From Archangium sp. (GTDB lineage: Bacteria; Myxococcota; Myxococcia; Myxococcales; Myxococcaceae): 30,202 nt of DNA. Below are positions 347-14,030 of this stretch, in pieces (the first letter of the stretch is position 1; every line of letters starts with the position of its first letter). The DNA lies in NCBI GenBank assembly GCA_031367385.1, contig JANLPS010000134.1, forward strand, positions 1 to 30,202. The letters are read 5' to 3'. The notes under the pieces were generated by a model. The model worked only from the letters and a program-made list of their open reading frames with translations, was not told the origin of the DNA and did not search any database. A program made the position numbers and the translations under genes.

Positions 347-1060
347 TTAGATCTCGCTGGGCAGCTTCGTGCGCGTGACCTTCTTCTCGTTGAAGTTGGG
401 AGCGCGAACGACCAACCCGTGCCCGCCGTGGCACATGCCCTGGTCCTCGGTCATGTGGCTGAACGAGACGACGACGATGTTGCCGCCGGCTGCGGCTCCA
501 AGCACCCGCAGCTCTTCGATGAACGCCGCTTCGTCTTCTCGAAACGCAGAGACCGCCGTGAAGCGGCCCAACAGCTCGACGGTGTCATCAGTCGAAACGA
601 GCTGACCATCTTTGAGCTCGACGCCTGAGGGCAGTGCCTCGACCAACACTACGACCTTCGAGCGATCGACCTTGGGCACCGTGTCTTCTTTCGCGGCCAC
701 CGGCTCGGGAGCGGCATCGAAGGCCTTGAGCCGCTCGAGCTCTTTGGTGCGAGCACTGGCTCGCAGCTCTTCAGCCCGCGAACTTGGCTTTTGCTTCAGC
801 TGGGTCTCGAGCTCGGCGATTCGGGCCTGGCGTGCCTTGAGGTCGGTCTTCAGGTCGACGGCGGCAGTCGGCGCCGCGGGGTCTGAGGGCTTCGATGGCC
901 CCATGATGTGCTTGAACGTGTCGATGACCTTGCGATCGCCAGCCGGGTTGGCGACCCCGAAGCTCGTGTAGCGCAGCGTCAGGTAGTTGATGTTGTCCTC
1001 CGCGTACACCGCGCCAGACACTCCGAGACAGACCACCAAACCGACGAGCCCGTTTTTCAT
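347..1060 (-). CDS. secreted hypothetical protein with central coiled coil
   Basis: Signal peptide MKNGLVGLVVCLGVSGAVYA; heptad-like segment LKTDLKARQARIAELETQLKQK; starts 13 nt after the QueA-like stop. Confidence 0.75.
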   Translation of the reverse strand: MKNGLVGLVVCLGVSGAVYAEDNINYLTLRYTSFGVANPAGDRKVIDTFKHIMGPSKPSDPAAPTAAVDLKTDLKARQARIAELETQLKQKPSSRAEELRASARTKELERLKAFDAAPEPVAAKEDTVPKVDRSKVVVLVEALPSGVELKDGQLVSTDDTVELLGRFTAVSAFREDEAAFIEELRVLGAAAGGNIVVVSFSHMTEDQGMCHGGHGLVVRAPNFNEKKVTRTKLPSEI

Positions 1061-1073
1061 GGGTGGGCAGCTA

Positions 1074-2135
1074 TCAGCCTATCGAGGGCGCTTCAACCGC
1101 CCCCTGGTACGCTGGAACCCGATGGCCAACGACCGGGACCGTTGGAGCGAGCACCAACATCGCGTCTCCGGCCTCGTGATCTTGCAGACCTGCCTCTCGA
1201 GCGATCAGGCTTGCCTGCGAGAGCAGCGCAGATGGCAGCAGCGCTTCGAGCAACCGGTAGTGCGACTCCTGTGGAGAATGAATGCCGGTGAGCAGCCCGC
1301 TCACGACGCGCCGCCTGTGGCCCCCGTCGATCAGCAACGAGGTCGTGCCGTTGCCCGCGATCACCTCGTGCTCGCTGCTTTCGAGCGCCCGCATCACACT
1401 GGTGCCGACCGCGATGACGCGGTGATTCGAGGCCACCGCCGCGTTCACCGCCGCCGCCGTCACCGGGGGTATTTCGTAGCGCTCGGGCAAGGGCATGACG
1501 GCATCGAGCTTCGACTCGCCCGATGCGCTGAGCCCTGCGCCCTCGGTCAAGGCCACCACGCGCGCTCCGGCCTTTCGAAAACCGAGCAGGAGCTGCCAGG
1601 TCAGCGCGCGGCCCGCCGACACGTGCTCGGCCGCCCAGGGCCGTGAGGCGTAGATGTTCTGAAACGCCCACAGCGGCTCAGGGTCGGGCCGGTGCGCGTA
1701 CTGCACGGGCGACCCTCGTTGGTACACCATTCGCCACACCGCATCGACCGGCGCCTCGAAGCGCAGTCGCAGCAGCCGAGGCGACTGCGGCGCGGTGGCG
1801 ATGATTCGGGCCGACAACCCCCCGACGGTGAGCGCCTGCCCTTCGTGCACCTGCGGGGGCGCTGGCCGAAGCTCGGTGCGGGTTCGCCAATCGCCAGTGC
1901 CGAGCAAGACCGCGCTCCATTCATCGGCCCGCGGGTCGAACAGCCGTACTTCGAGCGCGTCGCCTTGGGCGGTCACGGCGCGCAGGGAGGCTGGAATGGT
2001 CGCGGCGTCGTTGACCACCACCACATCGCCAGCCCGCACGAAGCGTTCAATCGAGCCGAAAGGGCCGACCTCGATGGTCTCGCGCATCGAATCGACGGTG
2101 AGCAGCCGCACCTGGTCGCGGGGCACGCTGGTCAT
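1074..2135 (-). CDS. QueA-family (SAM:tRNA ribosyltransferase-isomerase-like) protein, non-canonical paralog
   Basis: Motifs GDVVVVNDAATIPA, FQNIYA, RVIAVGTSVMRALES, GLLTGIH, GDAML. ATG at 2135 overlaps the SDR stop (ATGA). Lacks canonical PLPPYI, AAPTAGLHF and TNFH. Confidence 0.85.
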   Translation of the reverse strand: MTSVPRDQVRLLTVDSMRETIEVGPFGSIERFVRAGDVVVVNDAATIPASLRAVTAQGDALEVRLFDPRADEWSAVLLGTGDWRTRTELRPAPPQVHEGQALTVGGLSARIIATAPQSPRLLRLRFEAPVDAVWRMVYQRGSPVQYAHRPDPEPLWAFQNIYASRPWAAEHVSAGRALTWQLLLGFRKAGARVVALTEGAGLSASGESKLDAVMPLPERYEIPPVTAAAVNAAVASNHRVIAVGTSVMRALESSEHEVIAGNGTTSLLIDGGHRRRVVSGLLTGIHSPQESHYRLLEALLPSALLSQASLIAREAGLQDHEAGDAMLVLAPTVPVVGHRVPAYQGAVEAPSIG

Positions 2136-2836
2136 GCGCTGGGCTCCCACTTCGAGGCCGAGACCCGTGAGCCGCTGGCGACGCTGGGGTCTTCGAGCAG
2201 CCGGGCGATGCGCTTGGCCACCACCTGGGGCTCGGTCAACGTCGCGGGGTCGGCCTCGGGCATCGCGTCGTGGTGCATCTGCGTGCGCATCTCTCCCGGG
2301 TCGATGCAGAGCAGGCGTACGCCGGTGCCAGCGAGCTCGGCGGCCATCACGCGGGTCAGGTGATCGTGCGCCGCCTTCGACGCGCCGTAAGGGCCCCAGG
2401 TCGGGGAGGCCTCGACCGCCGCATCGGAGCTGATGTGCACGACCGTGCCCCGCTCGCGCATCACCATCGGGCCGACCAGTGCCTTGCTGAGCCGAAACGG
2501 GCCCACCACGTTGGTCTGCAGCACCGCCTCGAGGTCTTCGCAGTCGGTGTCGAGCAAGGGCCGCAGCGGCACCGGCCCCAGGGTGCTCGCGTTGTGCACC
2601 AGCAGGTCAATCGGCCCCACCAGCGCCTGGGCCTCGCCCGCGATGCGCCAGGTGGCGTCTTTGTCAGCGATGTCGGCCACGATGAAGTGGGCCCCGAGCT
2701 CGTCAGCGAGGGCTTTGAGCGGCTCGGGGTGACGAGCCACCAGCACCAACTTCACGTCTCGGGCGGCCAATTCACGGGCGAGGGCGGCGCCGAGCCCACG
2801 GCTTGCTCCGGTGATCAATGCGGTCTGTGTTTTCAT
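2132..2836 (-). CDS. short-chain dehydrogenase/reductase (SDR)
   Basis: TGASRGLG Rossmann motif, HNAS, ISS, catalytic YGASK, DPGEMRT; start taken at MKTQTALITG. Confidence 0.93.
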   Translation of the reverse strand: MKTQTALITGASRGLGAALARELAARDVKLVLVARHPEPLKALADELGAHFIVADIADKDATWRIAGEAQALVGPIDLLVHNASTLGPVPLRPLLDTDCEDLEAVLQTNVVGPFRLSKALVGPMVMRERGTVVHISSDAAVEASPTWGPYGASKAAHDHLTRVMAAELAGTGVRLLCIDPGEMRTQMHHDAMPEADPATLTEPQVVAKRIARLLEDPSVASGSRVSASKWEPSA

Positions 2837-2840
2837 GCCT

Positions 2841-2893
2841 CGTGTTGTAGCGCCGCTAGACAACACGTCAGAGGGCTTGCCAATGTATTGGCA
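2841..2893. promoter_or_regulatory. putative operator palindromes in the SDR/XRE divergent intergenic region
   Basis: TGCCAAT-GT-ATTGGCA (2878-2893) abuts the XRE RBS (AGGAGG). A second inverted repeat, CGTGTTGT-N11-ACAACACG (2841-2867), lies next to the SDR start. Confidence 0.55.
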
Positions 2894-2905
2894 GGAGGCT
2901 GATAG

Positions 2906-3451
2906 ATGAGCACCCACAGCGAGCACCTCGCCGAGAACATCAAGCAACTTCGAACCGTTCGAGGCCTGTCACAGGCGCAGATGGCGAAGCTGGTCGGCAT
3001 CCCCCGCACCACGTGGGGTCACCTCGAGTCATACGGCGCCAACCCGACCCTCGATGTGCTGCTGCGCGTCGCGGGGGCCCTGCACGTGCGGCTCGAAGAG
3101 CTGTTGGCCCCAGTGCGGCGGCCCGTTCGCCTGGTACGCGCAGCCGAGCTGCCCTCGCGCCGGCGCACAGAGGTGACGATTCGCTCGCTCCTGCCCGAGT
3201 CGATCGCGGAGATGGACCTGGAGCGAATGGTCTTCCCTCCCCGGGCGCGCTTGGTCGGCGTGCCGCACACGGAGGGGACGCGGGAGTACCTGACCTGCGA
3301 GCAGGGCCAGGTCGAGCTCGTGGTCGACGGCAACACCTTTCGCCTCGAGGTGGGTGACGTGGCGGTCTTTCGCGGCGACCAGAAGCACCAGTACGTCAAC
3401 CCGGGCAGCGTCGAGGCGGTGGCCTACAGCGTGCTCTCGTTTCTGGGGTGA
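2906..3451 (+). CDS. XRE-family HTH transcriptional regulator with C-terminal cupin domain
   Basis: LAENIKQLRTVRGLSQAQMAKLVGI...NPTLDVLLRVAGAL (HTH_3); cupin PH..G..E...G.V.L and F.GD..H.Y.N; AGGAGG RBS. Confidence 0.93.
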   Translation: MSTHSEHLAENIKQLRTVRGLSQAQMAKLVGIPRTTWGHLESYGANPTLDVLLRVAGALHVRLEELLAPVRRPVRLVRAAELPSRRRTEVTIRSLLPESIAEMDLERMVFPPRARLVGVPHTEGTREYLTCEQGQVELVVDGNTFRLEVGDVAVFRGDQKHQYVNPGSVEAVAYSVLSFLG

Positions 3452-3453
3452 GG

Positions 3454-3531
3454 GAAAAGGGGACAGGCTGGTTTAGTTCGGTGGCGTGCCCCGTGAGCCT
3501 CGGGCGAACTAAACCAGCCTGTCCCCTTTTC
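3454..3531. repeat. long palindromic REP/REPIN-like element, family A copy 1 (may also act as a bidirectional terminator)
   Basis: Perfect 27-bp inverted arms GAAAAGGGGACAGGCTGGTTTAGTTCG (3454-3480 / 3505-3531) with a 24-nt spacer, between convergent genes; core shared with 13953-14030. Confidence 0.85.
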
Positions 3532-3538
3532 GCCTGCG

Positions 3539-4621
3539 TCAGTGCGCGATGAGCGTCACGGTGAGCGATGACGGTGCATGGGTCGCGTCTTGCCGTTGCC
3601 AGAGCACCACGGCGGGCGTGGGCGTGCCGCACGCATGCGCGGTGATTGAGATCGGGGCCGTCTCCCAGGGTCGTGAATCGGTCACGTTCATCGGCAGCGC
3701 GGTGGTCGCTTCAGTCCACTGCGTGACGCCGCCATCACCGGGGGCGTTGCTGAAGCTGAACGCGAGCACGCTGGCGCAGGCTGGCACCTGGTACTGCACG
3801 GTGTACGAGACCGGGGTGTTGCCGTCGTTGCGAAAAGACAGCGTGCCGGTGCGCAAGCCCACGCCGAAGTCGACCGTTAGCGTGCCCCCGTCGCTGCACT
3901 GCTCACCAACGCCGAACCGAACGCAGGCCCGCGGCAGGGCCGCAATCGCGCGCCCCTGCATCGGCACCAGCGACGGCCCCACCGCCAGGGGCCCACTGAC
4001 GACCTCGCCCATCACCGTGGGCGTGAACGTGACCTTCGCCACCGTCTGGTCGCCAGGCGCGAGCGTGGTGAGCGCATTCGTGACGCTGATGTTCACTCCC
4101 CCGTCGACCGACGCGATGACCACTGGCGCGCTGCTCACATTGAGCAGCAGAACCGACAATGTCTTCGACTCGCCGAGGTACACCTCCGCGAAATCGAGCG
4201 TCGACGGAGTCGCCACCAACGGCGCCGCGATGCCGGTGCCACTCAGCCCCAGCTCGAACGGCGCATCATTCGAGGCCAACGTCACCGTGCCGGTCACCCG
4301 CTGTTCAACGACGCTCGGCGTGAAGCGGAGCACCAACTCACCGGTCGCGCCCGCATCGACACCAATGGGGAAGGCGCTCTGAGTGCCGAAGACGCGATCA
4401 CTGAATGTGGCCCCGGTCACGGTCAGCCCCGCCGTGCCCGAATTGCGAATCAATACATGGTGTTGCGCGGCGACGGCGATCGGCACCCGGCCGAAATCAA
4501 GGCTGGTTCTGGCGTTACCCTGGGCGTCGACCACCTCGAGCACCGCAAACCGGTTCGAGGTCGTCGGCTGTTGGCACGCGCAGGCAACCAGCACCAGGAG
4601 CGCGGCCGAGTGCCGGCTCAT
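3539..4621 (-). CDS. lipoprotein with tandem Ig-like ASH/choice-of-anchor-D-type domains
   Basis: Lipobox-like LVACAC; repeated LDFGxV/LDFAEV...N.G/S...L.V..FTP units; ATGA overlap with the gpsA stop. Confidence 0.75.
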   Translation of the reverse strand: MSRHSAALLVLVACACQQPTTSNRFAVLEVVDAQGNARTSLDFGRVPIAVAAQHHVLIRNSGTAGLTVTGATFSDRVFGTQSAFPIGVDAGATGELVLRFTPSVVEQRVTGTVTLASNDAPFELGLSGTGIAAPLVATPSTLDFAEVYLGESKTLSVLLLNVSSAPVVIASVDGGVNISVTNALTTLAPGDQTVAKVTFTPTVMGEVVSGPLAVGPSLVPMQGRAIAALPRACVRFGVGEQCSDGGTLTVDFGVGLRTGTLSFRNDGNTPVSYTVQYQVPACASVLAFSFSNAPGDGGVTQWTEATTALPMNVTDSRPWETAPISITAHACGTPTPAVVLWQRQDATHAPSSLTVTLIAH

Positions 4622-6548: not shown

Positions 6549-8543
6549 TCAGAGCGACTTGAGGTACGAGACCAGGTCGAGCTTCTCGTCGCTGGTCAAG
6601 CCCGAGGTCGTGCCGTGGCGGTCGCCGTCGTTCTTGAACACGCGCTCTTCGAGCGTGGTCATCGAGCCGTCGTGCAGGTACGGGGCAGAGCGGCCGACGC
6701 CGAGCAGCGAGGGCACGTTGAAGCCAGCGCGGGCCACCGGGCCGTTGTCAGCGTTCTTGTCGTGCAGGTTCAAGGTGCCGACGTCGGCGAAGAGGTTGTT
6801 GGTCATCAACTCGCCGGTGTGGCAGGTCGCGCAGGCGGCCTTGTTCTCGAACAGCGCCTTGCCGCGCACCACGGCAGGGGAGGCGGCGTTCATACCGGTG
6901 GCGGCGACGGGCAGCTGATCGACCCACTTGTCGAGCTGGCCGGCCGCGGCGGTGGTCAAGCCTGAGCCGCCCATGCGCTCGGTGATCGTGTGCTTGTTGA
7001 AGGTGGTGAGGTCACTGAACTCGCCGCTCCAGTGGTACGGCGCGGTCGAGAGCAGGTGGCGGCCCGCGAGCGCCGGCGTCTGGCGCGGCCCATCGGGGAA
7101 CTCCCAGACGTGACCGTCTTCACGGCCTTCGAGGTGGCAGGTGGCGCAGGCGACGTTGGTCGAGGCCGAGCTCATGCGGGTGTCGAGCGCGTCGAAGAAC
7201 AACCGGCGACCCGCGGCCAGCTCGGGGCTCAAGGTGTCTTTGGCGACTTCGATCGACTTGCCATTGTTGACGACCCGGGCCGAAGCGCCCTGGCCCGAGG
7301 CCTCGAGGGTCTCGATGCGGTGATCGAACTGGCTGTAGACGTACGCCTTGGTGCCATCGCGGGTGAGCGCGATGCCGTCAGAGCCCGCGCCGACGTGCAC
7401 GAGGCTGCGAACCGAGGTGCCGGTGCTGGCATACGTGGTGTCGTCGCCGGTGCGTCGGTAGGCCGGCAACACCGCGACGTTCGATGACTCGCGATTGACC
7501 ACGAACAACCAGGTGCCGGTGGGGTCGACCACGCCGACGGTCGGGCCTTGAATCGCATCTCCGCCGCCAGGGGTCGACGAAGCCAGAGTCGAGACCGGGT
7601 AGTCTTTGTCAGCCCCTGAGTTCGTGCCGCTCGAGAAGCAGCTGGTCAAGTCGTCGACCTGGGGGGTCACGGCGGTGCGCGTATCGACGGTCACGATACC
7701 CGCCGTGGCGACCGCGCCCACGTTGCAGGGGCCGCCCGCCGAGTAGTACCCGCCAGCCGATGAAGGTTTGCGGCCAATGGCGTCTTCACGGGCCCACACC
7801 ACCGGGGCGAAGACGCGGTTGCCGTCGGGAGTGACGATCAAATCAGCGACCGCGCGCGGGTGAAAAGTGCTGAACGAGCTGCCATAGGTCGAAGACGGCG
7901 TCGAGCGCGAGGCGTTGGCGAGATCGTAGATGCCGTTGCTGCCGGTGCCTGCCTTGAGTGCGCCCTTGGCCAAATCGACCTCGACCAGCTCACCCTGCTT
8001 GAAGAGCGACACGACCGCCCGGTTGCCAGCGACGACGGTCACCGCGCGCGGCTCAGCCCCCACGGGTATCTCGAACTGCGGCTGCAACGTCGCGGTGTCG
8101 AAGGCGGTCAGGGTACCGAAGTCGGGGTTCTCTTTGGCCGCGCTGCTGGTTACGAGCAGCTGCTTGTTGTCAGGAGTGAGAGCCAGCCCGGTGGGCTCGA
8201 TGCCGACCTGCAGGCGGGTGGCCTCTGACCAGGTGTCGCGGTGAATGACCGAGACCGAGTTGTCGCCGCGATTGGCGACGTAGATGGTGTCATCACTGCC
8301 GACGAGCAGGCGCACGGGGCTGTTGCCCACTTTGATCTCAGCGATCTTCGCGCTGGTCTTGGTGTCGATGACCGCGACGATGCCGTTGTCGGTGTCAGCC
8401 GCGTACAAGTACTGGTCGTCGGTCGAGAGGGCGACCGAGCCCGACGAGCGCGTCGAGGTACCGCTGCCGTGGTCGACGCAGCCCGTGAACAGCAGGCCTG
8501 CCGCCAACGCCCCAACCACCATTGACCGCTTGAAGATGTTCAT
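6549..8543 (-). CDS. lipoprotein: YVTN/YncE beta-propeller fused to a di-haem cytochrome c (bCcP/MauG-like) domain
   Basis: Lipobox LFTGC; YVTN-type repeats (IKVGNSP, LQVGIEP, IPVGAEP, YVANRGDNSVSVI); two CATCH haem motifs; PRQTPAL, PYHWSG, FNVPSL, PYLHDGS. Confidence 0.88.
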   Translation of the reverse strand: MNIFKRSMVVGALAAGLLFTGCVDHGSGTSTRSSGSVALSTDDQYLYAADTDNGIVAVIDTKTSAKIAEIKVGNSPVRLLVGSDDTIYVANRGDNSVSVIHRDTWSEATRLQVGIEPTGLALTPDNKQLLVTSSAAKENPDFGTLTAFDTATLQPQFEIPVGAEPRAVTVVAGNRAVVSLFKQGELVEVDLAKGALKAGTGSNGIYDLANASRSTPSSTYGSSFSTFHPRAVADLIVTPDGNRVFAPVVWAREDAIGRKPSSAGGYYSAGGPCNVGAVATAGIVTVDTRTAVTPQVDDLTSCFSSGTNSGADKDYPVSTLASSTPGGGDAIQGPTVGVVDPTGTWLFVVNRESSNVAVLPAYRRTGDDTTYASTGTSVRSLVHVGAGSDGIALTRDGTKAYVYSQFDHRIETLEASGQGASARVVNNGKSIEVAKDTLSPELAAGRRLFFDALDTRMSSASTNVACATCHLEGREDGHVWEFPDGPRQTPALAGRHLLSTAPYHWSGEFSDLTTFNKHTITERMGGSGLTTAAAGQLDKWVDQLPVAATGMNAASPAVVRGKALFENKAACATCHTGELMTNNLFADVGTLNLHDKNADNGPVARAGFNVPSLLGVGRSAPYLHDGSMTTLEERVFKNDGDRHGTTSGLTSDEKLDLVSYLKSL

Positions 8544-8684
8544 GCGCGCCTCGTGTGTTTCGTGTGCATCGCTGCGGTTTGATTGAAGCAACTGACTCTC
8601 ATGTCGTATTCGTGGCGCTTCACATCGCCATTGGGCCGACAACCTGCCCGAAATTCAAGACCCCTCGACTGCGTCGCGCCACTA

Positions 8685-13952: not shown

Positions 13953-14030
13953 AAATAAAGGGGACAGGCTGGTTTAAGTCACAGTTCGGCTCGTCCCAAA
14001 GTGACTTAAACCAGCCTGTCCCCTTTATTT
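13953..14030. repeat. long palindromic REP/REPIN-like element, family A copy 2
   Basis: Perfect 30-bp inverted arms AAATAAAGGGGACAGGCTGGTTTAAGTCAC (13953-13982 / 14001-14030) with an 18-nt spacer; 20-nt core identical to copy 1. Confidence 0.85.

Follow-up and report, generated by a model that had tools for sequence, protein, structure and literature searches.

Gene organization at the locus

The DNA analysed here, hereafter the window, is a stretch of 30,202 nucleotides from Archangium sp. Our subject is a group of three genes near its start, which encode a protein resembling QueA (the tRNA preQ1(34) S-adenosylmethionine ribosyltransferase-isomerase), a short-chain dehydrogenase/reductase (SDR) and a regulator. 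The QueA-like gene occupies positions 1074–2135 of the minus strand and is intact, encoding 353 residues from an ATG start; the open reading frame finder also made a longer call from a GTG at 2150. The SDR gene precedes it on the same strand (2132–2836; 234 residues), with a match to adh_short of 163 bits. The TGA of the SDR gene overlaps the ATG of the QueA-like gene in the tetranucleotide ATGA (2132–2135, minus strand), which suggests that translation of the two is coupled. The third gene diverges from this pair on the plus strand (2906–3451; 181 residues) and encodes a protein with an XRE-type helix-turn-helix and a cupin domain, with HTH_3 and Cupin_2 matches above their cut-offs. A perfect palindrome that belongs to neither strand, TGCCAA-N4-TTGGCA, lies at 2878–2893 between the divergent SDR and XRE-cupin genes. 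The open reading frames, the Pfam matches and the sequence itself therefore bear out the trio as it was given in an earlier preliminary description of this DNA. A scan of positions 900–3600 found no sigma-70 promoter and no terminator.

The same description had remarked that no tgt gene is nearby. This holds for the entire window, and the genome's two Tgt-family matches lie on other contigs. One of them lies on contig C378 with a separate canonical queA directly upstream of it, and the genome also has queC and queG. The QueA-like protein is consequently not the only QueA of the genome; to be the sole QueA of a queuosine-producing genome was the first half of what the preliminary description had named as telling against its proposal. 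The second Tgt-family gene (contig C539; L004, 1336–3438) encodes 700 residues and has a C-terminal extension, which we take to resemble an S-adenosylmethionine (SAM) methyltransferase domain of the MnmC type.

A QueA paralog probably outside queuosine synthesis

The QueA-like protein matches PF02547 with 148 bits (gathering cut-off 25), which places it in the QueA superfamily, but it scores far below the equivalog cut-offs of TIGR00113 (75 bits against 267) and NF001140 (104 against 324). It is 29% identical to the canonical QueA of the same genome. An AlphaFold model, with a predicted local distance difference test score (pLDDT) of 88, has the QueA fold, an α/β domain with an inserted β-barrel, and only QueA structures match it clearly, whether the whole model or the C-terminal part is compared. 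The Foldseek E value to PDB entry 1wdi is 3.6e-21. The whole model superposes on the same entry with a VIA Z score of 22.6, the next best being 8.0, and the C-terminal part matches a QueA structure with a Z score of 16.3 and a root-mean-square deviation of 2.4 Å over 153 residues. More distant fold relatives of the C-terminal part were sought and set aside, as none apart from QueA exceeded a Z score of 2.6.

A tree was built from 128 sequences, consisting of 97 paralogs and a narrow canonical set of 31 (30 from Actinomycetota and the QueA of this genome), with loci yielding fewer than 280 residues dropped. The 97 paralogs group together without any canonical row, on a branch of length 0.89 with a printed support of 0.58 after re-rooting, values that are indicative only. 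Together with the scores below the equivalog cut-offs and the canonical queA–tgt pair elsewhere in the genome, this agrees with the preliminary description of the protein as a non-canonical QueA paralog.

Five motif replacements had been reported for the protein and all are present, each on the minus strand. GSPVQY (1698–1715) stands in place of PLPPYI and LTEGAG (1533–1550) in place of LHVG. The AAPTAG loop is remodelled to AEHVSAGRAL (1602–1631), which includes Glu170, Ser173 and Ala174; residue 170 is glutamate in 97 of 97 paralogs and alanine in 31 of 31 canonical sequences. The counterpart of TNFH is TGIH (1278–1289), the beginning of a longer TGxH..ESH motif (1257–1289; Gly284, His286, Ser291 and His292) that replaces TNFHLPxST. 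Gly284 and His292 are found in all 97 paralogs, at columns where canonical QueA has asparagine (31/31) and leucine (28/31), respectively, and His286 is common to both groups. Finally, HEAGD (1164–1178), an instance of an HExGD motif (His320, Glu321, Gly323 and Asp324), replaces S[YF]GD. His320 and Glu321 are present in 97 of 97 paralogs; position 321 is serine in every canonical sequence, and the Gly-Asp pair is shared.

The letters quoted for these motifs are less general than their positions, as several turn out to be quirks of a small sub-branch and not the consensus of the clade. Close relatives of the query have AEMPSAGRPL, LTHAAG, TGxH and HE[FL]GD, and the combination His171, Val172 and Glu198 occurs in four proteins, the query included. 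We note that all four proteins with His171 (window position ~1623) have Glu198 (~1543) in place of the usual histidine, and that Glu198 is also found without His171; a compensatory swap in the sub-branch of the query is possible. We considered His198 as a metal ligand and rejected it, since glutamate, aspartate or other residues occur there in some members, again including the query. LHVG is itself not constant in canonical QueA: the canonical copy of this genome has LDVG, and histidine occupies the column in 19% of the 31 canonical rows.

The reported loss of the N-terminal FDYxLP..IAQ segment was similarly correct for this protein, with neither FDYxLP nor IAQ encoded in frame upstream, but loss of the FxLPxxLxA segment is specific to one clade. 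Of 46 members of the clade of the query one retains it, as against 31 of the 50 other paralogs and 28 of the 31 canonical QueAs; just three of 96 paralog reading frames encode IAQ. A clade-specific insertion, GxGDWRTRTExRP (1863–1901, minus strand), lies in the β-barrel domain at a gap in all 31 canonical sequences, and its residues Gly81, Thr87 and Arg90 are invariant both in the 39 rows grouped by this motif and in 70 close homologues.

Alongside these changes, much of QueA is retained. The query has all 26 of the positions that are kept in at least 95 of the 97 paralogs, many of them common to QueA (Asp37, Asn42, Gly141, Ala174, Gly201, Glu218, AxGT..R.LE, His286 and the Gly-Asp pair). The AVGT[TS]xxRxLE motif (1380–1412, minus strand), in which all 97 paralogs and all 31 canonical sequences have Ala242, Gly244, Thr245, Arg249 and Glu252, is likely to form part of a SAM pocket. 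Seven residues are paralog-specific and invariant in all 97 (Thr46, Tyr146, Glu170, Gly284, His292, His320 and Glu321), and the canonical invariants Gln17, Arg67, Pro-Leu-Pro, His198, Thr225–Phe226, His237, Asn311, Arg345 and Ser348 are absent from the paralogs. Because the new residues lie mostly in or next to retained motifs, we infer a remodelled active site, and judging from these conservation patterns the protein is likely to be still an enzyme. A pseudogene or decayed QueA was rejected on the grounds that all 26 clade-conserved residues are present. The net charge of the protein provided no contrast with canonical QueA.

The genomic distribution separates the paralog further from queuosine synthesis. 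Among the matches listed, from which 80 of 590 confirmed loci were taken, are Myxococcota, Acidobacteriota, Pseudomonadota, Bacillota, Cyanobacteriota, Chloroflexota, Actinomycetota and one archaeal record (Nitrososphaera). We sampled 201 genomes of Actinomycetota with at least 97% completeness, leaving out two fragments, and sorted them by their best Pfam E value (canonical below 1e-100; paralog-only 1e-40 to 1e-80). Tgt was present in 104 of 104 genomes with canonical queA, in five of 38 with the paralog only (5/37 without one unpublished genome, G301) and in 11 of 57 with no QueA-family match. It was thus not found in 33 of the 38 paralog-only genomes, with the reservation that a missing match is not proof of absence and that related genomes are not independent. 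Twenty of these 33 Tgt-less loci were checked; all 20 score as the paralog and all 20 have an SDR gene upstream. QueC and Qng1 were each found in one of the 32 Tgt-less paralog genomes other than G301, and for this reason we rejected queuine salvage or degradation and preQ0 chemistry as roles for the pair. The preliminary description had allowed either an RNA or a small molecule as the substrate; because Tgt, QueC and Qng1 are mostly not found in paralog-only genomes, an RNA of the preQ1 or queuosine type is now the weaker of these.

In the phylum of the window the paralog is found in 31 of 151 genomes, and canonical QueA coexists with it in all 31. Its occurrence is patchy, with 10 of 24 genomes of the same family carrying it, and plasmid copies are found in Rhizobium. 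In our view, the QueA-like protein is very probably an SDR-partnered protein that acts outside tRNA queuosine synthesis.

The partner SDR, the predicted complex and regulation

The SDR has the motifs of a classical enzyme: TGxxxGxG (Thr9–Gly16), an NAG-like motif (Asn82-Ala83-Ser84) and the triad Ser137–Tyr150–Lys154. Arg35, Trp147, Tyr150, Lys154, the DPG motif and Thr185 are present in 100% of 86 partner SDRs. A basic residue after the second strand goes with a preference for NADP(H) in SDRs, and Arg35 suggests that this enzyme uses NADP(H). Among solved structures, the closest to it are YciK and SDRs with generic names.

The coupling of the two genes, noted for the window in the preliminary description, proves to be general across the family. 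An SDR gene lies upstream of the paralog at 74 of the 80 loci, or 74 of the 75 with room for one; of the six others, five have less than 300 bases upstream and one has 6 kb and no SDR. At one of the 74 a gene lies between the SDR and QueA-like genes. No SDR gene was found within the ~1.5 kb flanks of 30 canonical queA loci. The four-nucleotide in-frame overlap recurs at 66 of 90 other loci. Among the 151 genomes of the phylum, the SDR adjoins the paralog in 31 of 31, and the paralog is present in 31 of the 32 genomes with the top-scoring SDR subfamily; the remaining genome (G105) contains a second PF02547 match of unlocated position. Five weaker SDR matches in this sample come from genomes that lack the paralog, and another profile match proved to be a canonical QueA.

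Two other lines were not used. Two longer matches containing an SDR, and one representative, look by eye like frameshifted read-throughs and not SDR–QueA fusions, and a third longer match joins an unrelated domain. The divergence of the SDR is correlated with that of the QueA-like protein (Spearman 0.80, 83 loci), but we did not rely on this because related organisms would share it. We also note a gene of the VOC/glyoxalase family after the pair at eight Bacillaceae loci (L034, L052, L055, L057, L069, L070, L072 and L084); VOC or SnoaL-like genes adjoin the pair at a few other loci, and the VOC gene is a possible third enzyme.

The two proteins are predicted to form a heterocomplex. They were modelled with alignments, with SAM and NADP folded along as ligands that are unscored and outside the calibration. 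The complex scored 0.91, compared with 0.68 for the best control and 0.00 for the other two. The mark that we applied is attained by 116 of 157 solved complexes and by two of 215 mismatched pairs, a calibration that is only roughly valid here. Runs agreed in at least 96% of contacts, with a partner pLDDT of 94. The predicted interface of the QueA-like protein consists of Trp134, Leu155, Trp156, Pro166, Trp180 and Leu183, which are 87–100% conserved in the 47-member clade of the query; canonical QueA is mostly acidic at the columns of Trp134, Leu155, Trp156 and Pro166. On the SDR the interface comprises residues 50–75, 118–127, 167 and 171, and lies on the helix after the adenine-binding Asp55. 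Searches of solved structures found no complex of the SDR/QueA-like kind.

Regulators next to the SDR gene were surveyed at 111 loci. They are XRE-cupin proteins at 36 (divergent), SoxR at 17 (divergent), NarL-type proteins at ten and SufR-like proteins bearing cysteines at eight; of the rest, five loci lacked room and seven had no SDR match. The role of the XRE-cupin protein as the divergent regulator, proposed in the preliminary description, is supported by its two domains and by a conserved candidate operator in the divergent spacer. The palindrome at 2878–2893 is the only exact copy in the genome. Within three mismatches it was found at 24 of 29 XRE loci (the window among them, and excluding one locus whose XRE gene is distant) and at five of 42 non-XRE loci, with 1.4 expected in shuffled sequence, and the pattern was drawn from the same XRE loci. 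Its conservation between the divergent genes points to the operator of an XRE repressor that a ligand would release. Just upstream of the SDR start, at 2841–2867, is a short inverted repeat with 8-nucleotide arms, which could cover part of the ribosome-binding site and is not evident by eye at other XRE loci.

At the SoxR loci, seven of seven MerR proteins tested exceed the TIGR01950 cut-off; the SufR-like proteins fall below theirs. A dyad box over a TTGACT hexamer precedes the SDR gene at 16 of the 17 SoxR loci and was found nowhere else in 1.12 Mb, the pattern having been drawn from the same SoxR loci. These loci come from two distant branches of the tree, and by sequence the 17 qualify as putative members of SoxR regulons. 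An annotated plasmid of Rhizobium etli carries soxR-2, an SDR gene and a gene named 'QueA' in this arrangement (IE4803_PD00147–149). Two loci (L122 and L125) have a MerR-type dyad box upstream of the SDR gene with no adjacent soxR, which suggests control in trans. Histidine kinases encoded upstream of the SDR gene at three others (L057, 1961–3076; L068, 997–2106; L083, 3074–4234) have a CWC...C motif in the sensor region, a possible Fe–S or redox site.

Several features of the window lie outside the trio. Positions 347–1060, immediately downstream of the QueA-like gene and on its strand, encode a 237-residue, probably secreted protein that matches nothing in Pfam or NCBIfam. An intergenic inverted repeat with perfect 27-nucleotide arms follows the XRE gene closely (3454–3531) and recurs at 13957–14026; it resembles a repetitive extragenic palindrome or a miniature inverted-repeat transposable element. 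The genome contains 47 copies of its 12-nucleotide core, most of them in inverted pairs; the repeat is outside the conserved module, and the copy after the XRE gene may double as a terminator. A gene at 6549–8642 encodes a 697-residue protein with β-propeller and cytochrome c/di-haem peroxidase-like matches and adjoins a two-component system.

Possible function and comparison with known systems

For QueA it has been proposed that SAM is deprotonated and depurinated to a vinyl sulfonium, that the preQ1 amine adds to this and that an epoxide closes with loss of adenine and methionine (PMC10491745). The reading that we favour, which we rate as somewhat short of an even chance, is that the SDR and QueA-like protein are an inducible two-enzyme unit in which a redox-active or electrophilic small molecule, and not a tRNA, is reduced and then capped with the ribose of SAM. 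In the window, the cupin domain of the regulator would bind a ligand and the operon would be de-repressed. The SDR would use NADPH to reduce a carbonyl compound of redox-active or electrophilic character. The nucleophile so formed would then receive, from the QueA-like enzyme, a cap consisting of the five-carbon unit that derives from the ribose of a bound SAM. The capping would follow QueA-type chemistry, namely depurination to the vinyl sulfonium, addition of the nucleophile and loss of adenine and methionine. The order would thus be reduction before capping. The stress-type control of homologous loci, with SoxR at 17 of 111 and cysteine-bearing SufR-like proteins at eight, is in favour of this reading. 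The more specific proposal that the predicted heterocomplex carries out a new conjugating detoxification, NADPH reduction followed by a SAM-derived ribosyl or carbocyclic cap, we put forward tentatively, as one that is more doubtful than not.

A number of observations weigh against the capping reading. That a SAM pocket is retained is judged from motif conservation, and for canonical QueA itself no liganded structure is known (PMC10491745). The seven invariant changes lie right beside QueA motifs, so that a different chemistry is possible. The predicted complex exceeds its best control by 0.23, just above the mark of 0.20. Outside the clade of the query, the 50 remaining paralogs keep Leu155 and Pro166 of the hydrophobic interface patch but conserve Trp134, Trp156, Trp180 and Leu183 poorly, which leaves the patch weak there. 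The SDR side of the interface excludes the catalytic residues Ser137, Tyr150 and Lys154 and also the 183–200 loop, and so lends no support to channelling. Among the neighbours scanned, neither a transporter nor a third enzyme accompanies the pair from one lineage to the next. The regulator in this window is an XRE-cupin protein, putatively ligand-sensing, and not SoxR; this genome, which is 98% complete, has no SoxR match (tblastn, E 1e-12), no SufR-like match and no SoxR box. At 28 of the 111 loci none of the four regulators was found within 900 bases. Finally, with regard to independence from queuosine, a Tgt-family match is present in 49 of 50 genomes of our first, mostly non-actinobacterial set (50 of the 80 listed loci), but 41 of these genomes also have a second QueA-family match.

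The best-surviving alternative, although a rather doubtful one, takes Glu170, His286, His292, His320 and Glu321 as a metal or acid–base site with a chemistry other than ribosyl transfer. For example, the QueA-like protein might cleave or isomerize a damaged metabolite, derived from SAM or a nucleotide, that accumulates during redox stress; the SDR would then reduce the reactive carbonyl compound thus produced, as a form of metabolite repair. All of these residues except the shared His286 are invariant in the paralogs and absent from canonical QueA, and the loss of Gln17, Arg67, Pro-Leu-Pro, His198, Thr225–Phe226, His237, Asn311 and Ser348 fits the same idea. So do the control of many copies by Fe–S-type sensors (SoxR and SufR-like proteins) and the lack of a conserved nearby gene for supply of an acceptor or for export. 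However, the motifs common to QueA stay invariant, and non-enteric SoxR regulons are reported to be without repair functions (PMC4146615).

We consider it unlikely that the pair is biosynthetic. In such a scheme an endogenous amine, or an RNA base that is not a Tgt product, would receive an epoxy- or amino-cyclopentitol built by the QueA-like protein, and the SDR would then tailor this group in place of QueG or QueH. QueA is the known enzyme that converts SAM to a carbocycle (PMC9092360), its fold including the β-barrel is kept and the SDR is dedicated. These points are offset by the patchy presence described above (10/24 genomes of the family, 31/151 of the phylum and the Rhizobium plasmids), by the local sensor regulators, and by the scanned neighbours, among which no RNA-modification or biosynthetic-cluster genes recur. 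In addition, Arg67 and the canonical Arg62, which is arginine or lysine in all canonical rows, are replaced in the clade of the query.

A non-catalytic role, in which the QueA-like protein senses SAM or an adenine nucleotide and regulates or anchors the SDR, appears less probable again. The predicted interface, away from the SDR catalytic residues and on the helix after Asp55, would suit such a subunit, as would the loss of many canonical invariants. On the other hand, the new invariant histidine, glutamate and tyrosine residues look catalytic across several bacterial phyla and the archaeal locus, and the interface patch is restricted to one clade whereas these residues are not. A redundant or stress-backup QueA making epoxyqueuosine on preQ1-tRNA is very improbable: the Pfam cut-off is passed, relatives are named QueA in the sources and Tgt accompanies the paralog in 49 of the 50 genomes of the first set, but 33 of the 38 Actinomycetota genomes with the paralog only gave no Tgt match, the scores are far below the equivalog cut-offs and this genome has a canonical QueA as well.

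Were the capping reading true, QueA would be joined by a second family of enzymes that use up the ribose of SAM, here on a small molecule and switched on by SoxR, SufR-like, two-component or XRE-cupin sensors. QueA is the sole SAM ribosyl-transfer enzyme named in the three reviews consulted (PMC1282579, PMC9092360 and PMC10491745). A tRNA-free sister family of QueA whose partner is defined and whose promoters are inducible might bring new chemistry of SAM to light, and a liganded structure of the QueA fold might be easier to obtain with it. The family is widespread and its chemistry directly testable. A literature search found no description of a QueA paralog or SDR pair of this kind, although the operon may appear in the supplementary tables of surveys on SoxR or queuosine. 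SCO1803–SCO1804 is presumably an SDR/QueA-like pair of this family. SCO1804 has been tabulated as QueA (PMC4932002) and SCO1803 as a dehydrogenase (PMC11272600). Databases give these paralogs the name QueA. Surveys in which COG0809 or IPR003699 serves as the marker of queA (PMC11570991; bioRxiv 10.64898/2026.05.01.722257) may include them among the queuosine genes. The enrichment of COG0809 reported for Antarctic Arthrobacter (bioRxiv 10.64898/2026.05.01.722257) may reflect this paralog.

The closest known system is QueA itself (EC 2.4.99.17; PF02547; TIGR00113; PDB entries 1wdi, 1vky and 1yy3). The QueA-like protein shares its two-domain fold, together with Asp37, Asn42, Gly141, Ala174, Glu218, AxGT..R..E, His286 and the Gly-Asp pair, but lacks IAQ, PAR, PLPPY, AAPTAGLHF, TF, H.MH, TNFH and S[YF]GD. 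Unlike QueA it is linked to an SDR and not to tgt, is common where Tgt was not found and is an accessory protein under local regulators; in this genome it is the canonical copy to which Tgt is linked. For the SDR, the best solved matches are YciK-like classical SDRs (NF006509; PDB entries 4z0t, 3i1j and 3iah), which share TGxxxGxG and the Ser-Tyr-Lys triad. The partner SDR scores 112.5 bits against the NF006509 cut-off of 269 and has motifs of its own (ASxLGPxP, SSDAA and DPGxMxTxMH), and the solved matches, being generically named, indicate no substrate.

In regulation, the homologous loci resemble the non-enteric SoxR regulons (mexGHI-opmD, PA3718 and PA2274 in P. aeruginosa; the eca genes in S. 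coelicolor), which are reported to consist of transporters and of enzymes that modify small molecules, and not of repair functions (PMC4146615; PMC13223516). The likeness lies in the 17 of 111 loci with a divergent soxR, 16 of them with the box, and in the encoding of small-molecule-modifying redox enzymes (PMC4146615). The difference is that the targets given in the available part of PMC4146615 include no QueA-like gene and that the window itself has an XRE-cupin regulator. A last comparison is with DpdA. While DpdA keeps a 7-deazaguanine substrate, and QueC, which acts in preQ0 synthesis, was found in one of 32 Tgt-less carriers of our paralog, DpdA is a Tgt paralog that has been redirected from tRNA to DNA (PMC5699537) and as such is an earlier case in which a paralog from the queuosine pathway has acquired a new substrate.

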